Assembly (NCBI GenBank): GCA_016839605.1
Contig: JAEOTX010000044.1
Location: 42,171 to 106,170 of the forward strand
Length of the DNA: 64,000 nucleotides
From: Candidatus Thorarchaeota archaeon
Lineage (GTDB): Archaea; Asgardarchaeota; Thorarchaeia; Thorarchaeales; Thorarchaeaceae
Direction: 5' to 3'
Shown: positions 6,130 to 9,206 of the stretch, one piece after another
How positions within the stretch are numbered: the first letter of the stretch is position 1
How the letters are laid out: each line of letters starts with the position of its first letter
Notes under the pieces: generated by a model
Databases searched by the model: none
The model's input: the letters and a program-made list of their open reading frames with translations, nothing else
Told to the model about the DNA's origin: nothing
Made by a program: the position numbers and the translations under genes

Positions 6130-7788
6130 TTGGCAACTGATGATGTTAAACCTGTACCAGAGAAGCCAGTACCAGAGCAGCCGATTACTCATGAGCAATC
6201 CGGAGGCTATGACCGATTCAAAGTAGAGAAGTACCCTCCGAGAGATCTGCCCTATACAACTCAGTCGATATGTCCCGACCATCTCTTAGACAATGACGAG
6301 GTCCATGTGATTGATGCGACCCTCTATGAGGAAGATGGCAAAGTGATGTACAAGAAGACATGCGAAACTCATGGTGAGTTCATTGATGTTTACTGGGGTG
6401 ACGCTGAGATGTTTAAGAAGGCCTCGAACTGGTGGTACAAATCCGTAGGTCTAGATAACCCCCGAACTGAGACCGTTAAGGGCTGTCCTGAGGATTGTGG
6501 ACAGTGTCCAGAGCACAAGTCCCACACTGCTCTAGCACTACTTGATGTTACTAACCGCTGCAACCTACGCTGTCCGATATGCTTTGCAGTCGCAGCTGAA
6601 GGTGGCAATGTATTTGAGCCTGAACCAGAGGAGGTACTTGAGATGTTGAAGAACCTCCGCCGAAATGAACCTGTTCCAGCACCAGCGATCCAGTTTGCTG
6701 GTGGAGAGCCCACTGTGACCAAACATCTTCCGCAGTACATCAAGTGGGCCAAGGAGGTCGGCTTCAGGCATGTGCAGATTGCAAGCAACGCCATCCGAAT
6801 TGGCAAGAGCAAGGAGTACCTACAGGAGCTATGTGACGCAGGACTGTCAACCATATACATGCAGTTTGATGGAGTGACCCCTGAACCCTATATTGCAGCC
6901 AGGAACACTAACCTTCTTCCTGTAAAGTTGCAAGCAATTCAAAACGCACGAGAAGTCGGAATGGAGTCACTCGTACTAGTGCCCACAGTAGTACGCGGAG
7001 TGAATGATGACCAAGTTGGCAAGATTGTGGAGTTTGCAGTGGAGAACAATGATGTTATTCGCTGTGTCAACTTCCAGCCAGTCAGCATCACAGGTCGAAT
7101 TGACTACGAAGCAAGGAAGGAGATGCGAATCACAATTCCTGATGTCATCCATCTGATTGAAGAACAGACAGGTGGAAAGATTCCAGCAACTGAGTGGTTC
7201 CCGGTCCCAGCAATGATGCCTGTAGGCCGTGCGCTTGGTCTGATGAAGGATAATCCCCAATTGGAGCTCAGCACTCACTTTGCATGTGGAATGTCTACTT
7301 TCATCTGGATCAACGATGATGGTGACTACGAGCCAATCACAAATCTGATTGAAGTCGGTAAGTTCATCGAGCTACTAGAGGACATCTCAAATCTCTACGC
7401 CGAGCAAAAGAGAGGTGCTGGTGCTCGTGCTAAAGCAAAACTTGCGGCTGGTGCACGTCACATCAAAAGGAAAGGAATCCTCAAAGATCTTCTTAGCGCA
7501 TTCTTGAACCGCGGAGACTACGAATCTCTCGCCAAGTTCATGCGACGCGTCATTATGATTGGAATGATGCACTTCCAAGATCCCTTCAATTTTGACTTGG
7601 AACGCGTTCAGCACTGTGATGTGAACTATGCAGTTCCTGACGGAAGAATAATCCCATTCTGCACCATGAACACAATACACAGGTCAAGGGTCGAGGATAA
7701 ATTCTCTATGCCTGTCAAGGATTGGCGCGCAAAGCACAAGCCAACTCAGGTCGAAGAGGACAGTATCTCAAAGCCTTTCGAGGCATAG
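6130..7788 (+). CDS. tes: Tetraether lipid synthase (Tes / GDGT-MAS, MJ0619-family radical SAM)
   Basis: KKTCETHGEFIDVYWGD, CPEDCGQCPEH, DVTNRCNLRCPICFA (CxxxCxxC), QFAGGEPT, NFQPVS, MHFQDPFNFD, IIPFCTMN. Order and spacing match the MJ0619 family as I recall it. Confidence 0.88.
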   Translation: MATDDVKPVPEKPVPEQPITHEQSGGYDRFKVEKYPPRDLPYTTQSICPDHLLDNDEVHVIDATLYEEDGKVMYKKTCETHGEFIDVYWGDAEMFKKASNWWYKSVGLDNPRTETVKGCPEDCGQCPEHKSHTALALLDVTNRCNLRCPICFAVAAEGGNVFEPEPEEVLEMLKNLRRNEPVPAPAIQFAGGEPTVTKHLPQYIKWAKEVGFRHVQIASNAIRIGKSKEYLQELCDAGLSTIYMQFDGVTPEPYIAARNTNLLPVKLQAIQNAREVGMESLVLVPTVVRGVNDDQVGKIVEFAVENNDVIRCVNFQPVSITGRIDYEARKEMRITIPDVIHLIEEQTGGKIPATEWFPVPAMMPVGRALGLMKDNPQLELSTHFACGMSTFIWINDDGDYEPITNLIEVGKFIELLEDISNLYAEQKRGAGARAKAKLAAGARHIKRKGILKDLLSAFLNRGDYESLAKFMRRVIMIGMMHFQDPFNFDLERVQHCDVNYAVPDGRIIPFCTMNTIHRSRVEDKFSMPVKDWRAKHKPTQVEEDSISKPFEA

Positions 7789-7796
7789 TCCCCCTA

Positions 7797-7833
7797 GGAT
7801 GAAGGAGCTCTGCTCCTCATCCCTCTCTTTCTC
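7797..7833 (+). terminator. Hairpin plus pyrimidine tract after tes
   Basis: GGATGA-A-GGAGC-TCT-GCTCC-TCATCC followed by CTCTCTTTCTC, starting 8 nt after the stop codon. Confidence 0.55.
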
Positions 7834-8044
7834 ATCATGACTTTAAGAAAGCCGCATTTTCCTGTTTTCAACCAATCTCTTAAAGTTTGATACTGCCTTC
7901 ATTTGGAATATTCTCATCCAGTTTGTTATGAAAGAGAATGAATGGACAGCAAACAACGCATAGGCGCGCTTTGCTCCTGTCCCGAAATACGACGTCTGAG
8001 AGCACTTTAACAACACTTTAAGCAGATGACGTACCTGACTGCCA

Positions 8045-8060
8045 TAACTTTAATAAGTTA
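8045..8060 (+). promoter_or_regulatory. TATA box (TTTAATAA 8049-8056) inside inverted repeat TAACTT-TAAT-AAGTTA
   Basis: Lies at about -32 to -25 relative to the GC-rich structured element starting at 8081, which is archaeal TATA spacing. Confidence 0.5.
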
Positions 8061-8080
8061 GCTCTGCCCTCAACTTTGAA

Positions 8081-8210
8081 GGCGGTGGGATTGCGGGACA
8101 TGTCCATCGCTAAAGAGAATGCAAGGCGAGCATGTGGGCTAGTTTTTCGTTACATGCCCTCAATTACGAAACTCCCCCCTCCTACCACGATTTCCCGCGT
8201 GCTCGTCACC
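8081..8210 (+). ncRNA. Putative structured small RNA, family unknown
   Basis: 5' GGCGGTGGGATTGCGGGA pairs with 3' TCCCGCGTGCTCGTCACC (15/18 pairs including G-U). Two internal hairpins, upstream TATA, downstream TTTTACTTTT tract. Confidence 0.5.
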
Positions 8211-8282
8211 TTTTACTTTTCTAATCCTCCAAGAGCTGTCAGATAAAATCCTTAATTAGCGCCCGAACCTTTTCGATGTCGG

Positions 8283-9206
8283 ATGTTCAGCATGAATCAG
8301 CGGCGAGAACTCAAGTTACTTCAGGTTGATGTTTTTACAGACACGCCCTATGGCGGGAATCCTGCGGCAGTCATTCTTGCTCCCGAGAGTCTGAAAGAGA
8401 ATGAGATGGCGAAGATTGCGCAGGAGATGAATGTTCGAGAGACCGTCTTCGTCTTGAAATCAAAAGTGGCTGACCACCGTTTCATATTCATTACTTCTAG
8501 AGGTGAGATTGATTTCTCAGGACATGCAACAATCGCAGCAATTCATGCACTCATTCATGAGGGTCTCGTGGAGATATACAGGGACGAGACTATGGTGAGC
8601 ATTGAGACCAACGCTGGTTTACTGCAGGCTGACATTGTCAAAAATGACACAACACGACTCCACGAAGTACAGATCACGCATCAGAAACCACAATTTCTTG
8701 ACACATACGACCCAAATGACTTCAACGAGGCTCTAGGAATCACTCTAGCTGATATAGACCGCTTAGTGCCAATGCAGACTGTAACTACAGGAATTCCCAT
8801 TCTGGTTGTACCACTCTCCACATTGAAAGCTTTTGAGAAAGTTGTATGTGATTTGAATAGATTGGTTGAACTCCAAAAGGGCTCTGATTTTAGTTCTCTC
8901 TGTGTCTTTACAAGAGCGACCCATGATGAGACTTCTGACGCTCAAGTCCGGCATTTTGCTCCCTCCCTTGGCGTGAACGAAGATGCAGTAAGTGGTGCTG
9001 CAGCTGCATGTGTGGCTAGTTATATGATCCGATATGGAATTATAGACGATACTCTAGGAGTCGCGAGTATTGTTGTCGAACAAGGCCACGCAGTTGGACG
9101 ACCGGGAAAGAGCTTCGTCGAGGTTCGAGGAGACAAAGAGAATATCGAGCTTGTGAAGGTGAGCGGAACGGGTATTGTGATTATGAAAGGGACGCTTTAC
9201 ATCTAG
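8283..9206 (+). CDS. PhzF family epimerase/isomerase
   Basis: QVDVFTD...GGNPAAV, ETVFV, EIDFSGHATIA, EDAVSGAA, EQG...GRPG. Confidence 0.9.
   Translation: MFSMNQRRELKLLQVDVFTDTPYGGNPAAVILAPESLKENEMAKIAQEMNVRETVFVLKSKVADHRFIFITSRGEIDFSGHATIAAIHALIHEGLVEIYRDETMVSIETNAGLLQADIVKNDTTRLHEVQITHQKPQFLDTYDPNDFNEALGITLADIDRLVPMQTVTTGIPILVVPLSTLKAFEKVVCDLNRLVELQKGSDFSSLCVFTRATHDETSDAQVRHFAPSLGVNEDAVSGAAAACVASYMIRYGIIDDTLGVASIVVEQGHAVGRPGKSFVEVRGDKENIELVKVSGTGIVIMKGTLYI

Follow-up and report, generated by a model that had tools for sequence, protein, structure and literature searches.

In Firmicutes, RsaE/RoxS and other small RNAs (sRNAs) with UCCC or CCCC seeds use at least two C-rich seeds to pair with G-rich Shine-Dalgarno (SD) regions, and both their targets and their Hfq-independent mechanism have been shown experimentally. 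In Methanosarcina mazei, sRNA41, sRNA154 and sRNA162 are archaeal, intergenic and trans-acting RNAs that have been proposed, or shown, to mask ribosome-binding sites. For the Asgard archaea, the closest prokaryotic relatives of eukaryotes, almost nothing is known, to our knowledge, about non-coding RNAs. The cuckoo RNAs of alphaproteobacteria consist of two to four adjacent hairpins, each with an anti-SD loop of sequence CCUCCUCCC, and are present in up to nine copies within conserved neighbourhoods (PMC4615179).

The locus described here lies in the window, that is, the whole stretch of 64,000 nucleotides of Candidatus Thorarchaeota DNA that was analysed. A 494-bp intergenic gap between a Tes-like gene and phzF hosts an RNA element at positions 8081-8210 of the forward strand, which from its sequence is predicted to be a genuine, separately promoted gene for a folded non-coding RNA of about 130 nt (Table 1). 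A stand-alone structured RNA with its own promoter was the core of the original prediction, and the conserved promoter box, the fold and the conservation throughout the class support it. The element is, as judged from the genomes searched, a member of a Thorarchaeota-specific, multi-copy and uncatalogued sRNA family.

Table 1. Features of the RNA gene, its neighbours and its second copy in the same genome (window positions except for the last row).
Feature	Position	Strand	Remarks
Tes-like gene	6130-7788	+	552-aa radical-SAM protein with HMPTM-type zinc ribbon; upstream of the RNA
BRE/TATA promoter	8044-8061	+	TTTAATAA at 8049-8056; ends about 24 nt ahead of the RNA 5' end
5' hairpin H0	8081-8111	+	G-rich 5' strand GGUGGG pairs with UCCAUCGCU; in MFE and centroid structures
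A-rich linker	8112-8124	+	variable; unconserved in alignment A6
P1 clamp helix, 5' strand GGCGAGCAUGUGGG	8125-8138	+	partner 8194-8207
P2 hairpin, AGUUU-UU-CGU / ACG-AAACU	8141-8173	+	apical loop CAUGCCCUCAA at 8153-8163
Tract CCCCCCUCCUACCACGAUUU	8174-8193	+	single-stranded, anti-SD-like; unpaired in MFE and consensus fold
P1 clamp helix, 3' strand CCCGCGUGCUCGUC	8194-8207	+	partner 8125-8138
ACC tail, then U-rich run TTTTACTTTTC	8208-8221	+	ACC conserved in tes-linked copies
PhzF-family gene	8283-9206	+	downstream of the RNA; ATG at 8283
Second, diverged copy	C88:19254-19331	-	between an OsmC gene and a VWA gene

The upstream gene, tes, presumably encodes a tetraether-synthase-like lipid enzyme. 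Directly 3' of its stop codon, a hairpin formed by GGAUGAAGGAGC and GCUCCUCAUCC and followed by a pyrimidine run (7797-7830) is likely to be the tes terminator, and the stretch of the gap that holds it (about 7794-7859, gap positions 6-71) has BLAST matches in several genomes of the genus. On the other side of the RNA, an AT-rich box had been noticed near 8250, and a TATA-like sequence, CCTTAATTAG, is indeed seen some 24-33 nt ahead of the phzF initiation codon (8240-8283). The phzF mRNA is probably leaderless, or nearly so.

The promoter of the RNA itself is present as described from the window sequence, with the box lying within a TAACTT/AAGTTA inverted repeat and the GC-rich element beginning about 25 nt after it. 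Of 29 tes-linked homologues from eight genera, all except one or two have a BRE/TATA box similar to AAACTTTAATAAG, at a distance from the RNA that is constant in nearly all of them, and the box in the window resembles those ahead of the tRNA genes of the same genome. RNA copies at other loci have boxes of their own, of the TTTATTAGG type, 25-55 nt upstream. At the opposite end, the U-rich run that had been reported after the element is present, pyrimidine-rich runs also follow the RNA in homologues, and the covariance-model match to the window copy ends at 8210; the ACC tail and the run are likely to mark the RNA 3' end or a terminator. In a BLAST comparison of the whole gap with 40 related genomes, a core of about 90 nt (approximately 8122-8211) is 90-99% identical in 24 of 24 other genomes sampled from family f1, often in multiple copies, with flanks that are about 80% identical or cannot be aligned. 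Across the whole class, the identity of the element is 90-100%.

The comparative fold consists of the 5' hairpin H0 and a 14-bp clamp helix, P1, that encloses hairpin P2 and the single-stranded tract. The MFE and centroid structures of 8081-8210, with a 5' hairpin at 8081-8111 followed by P1, match this arrangement. In MAFFT alignments, 98-99% of the P1 cells are paired, and in one such alignment of 20 copies the figure for P1 and P2 together is 99.5%, against 32-51% with slid partners, with double changes at three pairs. On alignment A6, a MAFFT alignment of 21 tes-linked copies, 94% of the cells of the whole fold are paired. Among 31 diverse members, P1 has double (compensatory) changes at 13 of its 14 pairs, and 95% of cells are paired against 38-47% when slid, values that were reached by 0 of 500 shuffles; this alignment was fitted to a covariance model and leans towards the structure, a bias from which the MAFFT-based counts are free. 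RNAalifold did not recover P1 from a MAFFT alignment in which both classes of copies were mixed and poorly aligned, whereas the model-guided alignment recovers it.

The strands flanking the interior of the core, GGCGAGCAUGUGGG and CCCGCGUGCUCGCC, vary in concert; for instance, GGCGGGUACGUGGG is found with CCCACGGACCCGCC. The interior of about 55 nt that the P1 strands bracket, CUAGUUUUUCGUUACAUGCCCUCAAUUACGAAACUCCCCCCUCCUACCACGAUUU, shows only three single-copy differences, all of them within the 3' tract. Across 20 tes-linked copies the tract varies only by one C-to-A change and one deleted U, it is nearly invariant in 40 family members, and both P2 and its loop are invariant in tes-linked copies. 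Diverged paralogues preserve P2 through CGU/ACG, UGU/ACA and GAA/UUC variants, with insertions at the apex only. An alternative from RNAfold pairs AGUU with GAUU instead of AACU, and the pairing with AAACU is preferred because AAACU, and not GAUU, is retained in diverged members. Hairpin H0 is confined to the tes-linked class of copies, where its 5' strand reads GGUAGG or GGAGGG in relatives; its seven core pairs are 87% paired in A6, three of them with compensatory changes, as in GGUGG/CCAUC to GGUAGG/CCUAUC. The 86-nt core folds with a z-score of -5.2, equalled by 0 of 200 shuffles. For the minus strand the z-score is -0.2 which, together with three G-U pairs in P1, fixes the RNA on the plus strand.

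This fold retains only part of the structure that had been drawn from the window sequence, namely a three-way junction in which paired ends enclose hairpins A and B. Hairpin B is present as P2, and the tract following it (CCCCCCUCCUACC, 8174-8186) is confirmed as unpaired. The end helix, 8081-8098 with 8193-8210, does form 15 of 18 pairs in the window sequence, but is not conserved among homologues; in the 21 copies of A6, 75% of its cells are paired, covariation is absent, and 485 of 500 shuffles give at least as much pairing. Hairpin A is paired in merely 15-56% of cells in the same alignment. With an end helix devoid of covariation and a poorly paired hairpin A, the three-way junction is ruled out. 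A proposed switch, in which GGUGGGA would pair with UCCUACC, also finds no support; the 5' G-rich strand covaries with its local H0 partner instead. In the right register, about 78% of cells can form the switch pairing, against 37-63% in other registers, and the invariance of the tract leaves no covariation possible. The 5' strand of H0 is always GGURGG or GGAGGR, and each of these forms has complementarity to the invariant tract in one register or another.

Two covariance models, both including the window's own copy, define the distribution of the family: R1, from alignment A2, and the broader R2, from alignment A4. The window copy scores 114 bits with R1 (8125-8210, E about 1e-21) and 106 bits with R2, and it has the features that define the family, a covarying terminal helix that encloses a UAGUUU...UGCCCUCA...AACU hairpin and a CCCCUCCUA strand. 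With R1, the family is found in 84 of 87 genomes of the class (96%) and in all 17 of its genera, at one to nine copies per genome; R2 finds it in 27 of 27 genomes from both families of the class and gives no match elsewhere in the phylum (123 genomes, 25 families). In an exact-motif scan of the genomes of 185,579 species, the matches listed are labelled Candidatus Thorarchaeota, generic Promethearchaeota or uncultured archaeon, together with one MAG labelled Candidatus Hermodarchaeota. The latter (JBHLLF010000039.1, locus L111) has the motif pair in exact form, and represents a mislabelled Thorarchaeota bin or else the sole occurrence outside the class among the matches listed. A published description of the RNA was not found in the literature searched. 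In the genome that holds the window, which is 80% complete, the second copy represents a paralogue class that is conserved across the genus. Tandem RNA copies are seen in genomes G094 (L060) and G095.

In each genome, the copy with the best score is found shortly 3' of a Tes-like gene and on the same strand, with adjacency in 12 genera (a count that merges neighbouring ORFs with coordinates from a Tes search) and a spacing of about 170-470 nt in the adjacent cases. The 31 upstream ORFs, from 30 loci, form a single protein cluster. In four further genera the copy is found 2-4.5 kb from tes, and the class's second family has lost the linkage. The gene downstream of tes-linked copies is variable, with PhzF at 18 loci. 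Across all copies, the downstream genes also include GH3, BNR, H+-PPase, flotillin, UvrB, VWA and TBP-domain genes, and they are often on the opposite strand. Copies away from tes lie next to genes for an H+-pyrophosphatase (twice), a flotillin, a PAS histidine kinase, UvrB, an adenosine deaminase and a TBP-domain protein, and next to an AbiEi-like gene; the neighbours of these copies show no shared partner and include neither mobile-element nor defence genes. In one genome (G024:C1:305255-306823), two fragments of the tes 3' end, one of them with stop codons, lie directly upstream of an RNA copy and 3 kb from an intact tes, an arrangement that suggests segmental duplication of a unit made up of the tes 3' end and the sRNA.

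Comparison with known RNA classes assigns the element to none of those searched. Rfam 15, with models for tRNA, 5S, SRP, RNase P, C/D and H/ACA sRNAs, riboswitches, ribozymes and ar14/cuckoo-type RNAs among others, gave no matches in the whole window at gathering thresholds, a permissive search at 7780-8300 returned noise only (E = 7-9), and the diverged paralogues are likewise without a match; the Rfam search suggested along with the original prediction thus leaves the element without a known family. ARAGORN found no tRNA genes in the window and none at 14 homologous loci, and the earlier statement that the element does not resemble tRNA, 5S or SRP RNA stands. A T-loop motif is absent, and only the GGCGAGC/GCUCGYC ends with ACC are acceptor-stem-like. 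SRP RNA (RF01857) and RNase P RNA (RF00373), each expected as a single essential copy, are located elsewhere in the same genome (C101:3124-3434 and C46:1987-2324, respectively), so the window element is neither. For a box C/D RNA, UGAUGA and CUGA are both absent from 8081-8210. For an H/ACA RNA, the 3' tail is ACC, and the diverged paralogues that do end in ACA have no two-sided pocket. A riboswitch or leader is contradicted by the heterogeneity and frequent opposite orientation of the downstream genes, by their own TATA boxes, and by the U-rich or pyrimidine run that follows the RNA.

Two C-rich strands are exposed in the fold, the P2 loop CAUGCCCUCAA and the tract CCCCCCUCCUACCAC, in unpaired regions that are almost free of G and that contain two CCCUC-type motifs; the RNA also has an AGUUUUU run. 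The likeness of the tract to an anti-SD sequence, claimed at the outset, is borne out by the 16S rRNA of the same genome, the 3' end of which is ...AUCACCUCCUAAG and has the heptamer CCUCCUA in common with the tract. The flanks of the heptamer differ, reading AUCACCUCCUAAG in the 16S and CCCCCCUCCUACCAC in the sRNA, and the sRNA would therefore favour GGUAGGAGGGG-type sites, of which the genome has few. At positions -20 to -4 of first ATGs in this genome, GGAGG is enriched 5.8-fold and TAGGAGG about 20-fold, indicating that SD-led initiation is used, and these SD sites show no preference for the sRNA-type GGAGGG over the 16S-type GGAGGU.

Scans for targets yielded no clear signal. Predicted binding of the tract at -12 kcal/mol or lower is seen in 20.9% of start-region windows versus 15.9% of internal ATG windows. 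Perfect 11-nt complements outside the family's own genes, genome- and genus-wide, are not commoner than those of a reversed-pattern control, and nearly all 11-mer matches are the family's own genes, the exceptions being the SD of a methyltransferase gene in two genomes and one intergenic element. The methyltransferase gene encodes a SAM-methyltransferase-like protein of 211 aa (L081:1517-2149, plus strand, in G011; L087:863-1495, minus strand, in G002) and is a candidate target; its leader AUGGUAGGAGGGGA (GGUAGGAGGGGA) sits 5 nt before the ATG and is a 13-nt complement of the tract, within chance expectation. Complementarity to 16S is confined to an 8-nt stretch, GGGGGGAG, near h44/h45 and is compatible with chance.

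Related C-rich sequences are found elsewhere. In the same genome, on the minus strand of contig C154 (L058:1915-1965), the stop codon of a 446-aa gene is immediately followed by a hairpin, CUCUGU[ACCCCCCUCCUACCAUAGGAA]ACAGAG, whose loop presents the same C-rich motif, and just upstream is an AUGGUAG that is complementary to CUACCAU. In genomes G004 and G006, a conserved intergenic element (L077:1432-1566 and L083) reads GUGGUAGGAGGGG in one orientation and CCCCUCCUACCAC in the other, is flanked by GC-rich inverted repeats, and has no match in Rfam; this element may be a target, a sponge or a further C-rich RNA. The 16S gene of the window's genome (L090; C82:4569-6699, minus strand) is itself unusual, at 2131 nt versus a model of 1478 positions, indicating large insertions. 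About 27-30 extra bases, CUGAGCCAGAUAUCCUGGCUUGGCAGCAA, lie between GGAUC and the anti-SD tail AUCACCUCCU, and may represent a mini-intron or an expansion, in either case at a site critical to function.

With CCUCCUA exposed and SD-led initiation in use in the genome, a trans-acting regulator that binds SD or other G-rich sequences is the most economical reading of the RNA, and, by analogy with the bacterial sRNAs with C-rich seeds (cuckoo/CcsR, RsaE/RoxS) and the Methanosarcina anti-RBS sRNAs, action in trans on G-rich or SD-like mRNA sequences is the most likely function. The full model, to which we give tentative preference at a little under an even chance, is that of a Thorarchaeota-specific, tes-linked sRNA with its own promoter and a clamp fold that pairs in trans with SD-like mRNA sites. 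Here, the tes-linked member in the window would be the ancestral copy of the family, transcribed from its own BRE/TATA promoter and folding into the 5' hairpin and the 14-bp clamp. The clamp would keep open the two G-poor, C-rich strands, loop CAUGCCCUCAA and tract CCCCCCUCCUACCAC, for pairing in trans with G-rich, Shine-Dalgarno-like mRNA sequences, and such pairing would modulate the translation or the stability of the mRNAs.

The extent of the near-invariant interior, about 55 nt with the paired P2 included, exceeds what a pairing seed would need and so indicates a protein or other macromolecular partner. The RNA might then be the subunit, scaffold or sponge of a Thorarchaeota-specific RNP, with mRNA pairing secondary or absent, an explanation that we regard as unlikely overall while taking it seriously. 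The partner could be a KH or Sm protein, some other binder of C- or U-rich RNA, or a factor whose normal ligand is the 16S 3' tail. The sameness of the interior across genera and paralogues extends to P2 and its UU bulge, a constraint typical of RNAs with extensive macromolecular contacts, and the pair of CCCUC-type motifs with the AGUUUUU run, as well as the weakness of the target scans, point the same way. However, tes aside, no protein gene co-localises with the RNA copies, the diverged paralogues tolerate changes in P2, insertions and variation in C-run length, and known protein-binding motifs (K-turn, C/D and H/ACA boxes) are absent. A bolder variant, improbable in our view, has an abundant Thorarchaeota-specific RNP RNA mimicking the CCUCCUA of the 16S tail and titrating, on a global scale, either SD-led mRNAs or a 16S-tail-binding factor; it would thereby switch between SD-dependent and leaderless translation, with the ancestral copy kept beside tes for co-regulation. 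The constant position of the best copy, on the same strand and shortly after tes in 12 genera, and the tes 3' fragments that precede an RNA copy in one genome, consistent with segmental duplication, would also suit a cis element of the tes transcript, such as a 3'-UTR stabiliser, a processing site or a terminator module. This is very unlikely, given that tes has a 3' hairpin and pyrimidine run of its own, that a conserved BRE/TATA box lies 24 nt ahead of the RNA, that many members reside at unrelated loci with their own promoters, and that the second family of the class has lost the linkage; the complementarity of the RNA to tes mRNA is also ordinary, at -17.4 kcal/mol where background minima range from -17 to -28, with nothing beyond background.

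The copy number, up to nine per genome, the tandem pairs and the many copies at contig ends in the R1 search could be read as the spread of a mobile or selfish repeat, or of a self-cleaving ribozyme, within Thorarchaeota. Contig breaks at the copies are to be expected of an 86-nt exact repeat, though, and the paralogous loci keep a stable synteny from genus to genus. The surroundings of the copies lack transposase and integrase genes as well as terminal repeats and target duplications, viral contigs have no match to the family, and Rfam ribozymes have none to the RNA, leaving this explanation highly improbable. There is, finally, an open frame in the window sequence (8076/8100-8246), and the original prediction had offered a 48-codon ORF beginning at ATG 8100 as its own alternative; a 31-codon ORF from the internal ATG 8154 is another form of the same idea. 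The upstream ATG, however, is retained in only 3-4 of 29 homologues, stops both upstream and downstream are widely scattered among them, indels of lengths not divisible by three occur in the linker and the 5' hairpin, and the core, hence also the would-be peptide, has 1-nt indels and a C-run that varies between 5, 6 and 7. All three codon positions are equally invariant, the changes are compensatory across the helix, and Pfam has no match to the ORF. A small protein thus has next to no probability, and the 48-codon ORF is rejected on its unconserved start and stops and the frame-breaking indels in the core; the gene is non-coding.

Returning to the sRNA as the preferred reading, four traits of the family are notable: its presence in 84 of the 87 genomes of the class, its multiple copies, its position outside Rfam, and a level of conservation otherwise usual only for rRNA, tRNA and snRNA. 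The family provides a concrete handle on post-transcriptional control in the uncultured Thorarchaeota, and is suitable as an Rfam entry and as a lineage marker.

Among known systems, the anti-RBS sRNAs of Methanosarcina mazei are alike in being archaeal and intergenic, with action in trans only proposed for the Thorarchaeota RNA. They are species- or genus-limited, present in single or few copies, not ultraconserved throughout a class, and unrelated in sequence. RsaE/RoxS RNAs resemble the Thorarchaeota RNA in their multiple C-rich single-stranded seeds, stand-alone genes and own terminators, but there is no homology, the fold and the domain of life are different, and the Thorarchaeota RNA is known from sequence alone. 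The cuckoo/CcsR1-4 family is probably the closest functional parallel. Like the RNA described here, its members are multi-copy, present an invariant, unpaired, C-rich anti-SD-like motif on variable, covarying stems, and include subsets with conserved intergenic neighbourhoods. They are, however, bacterial, and are built of tandem modular hairpins in place of a clamp enclosing a hairpin and a single strand. The cuckoo motif CCUCCUCCC is absent from the Thorarchaeota RNA, which has CCCCCCUCCUACC and UGCCCUCA instead; the conserved part is 9 nt in the one and about 55 nt in the other, and no similarity is seen in sequence or by covariance model. Thus, the Thorarchaeota RNA may work like a cuckoo/CcsR RNA while not being a member of that family, and, if it does act through its anti-SD-like strands, it would represent the first class-wide archaeal counterpart of the bacterial sRNAs with C-rich seeds.
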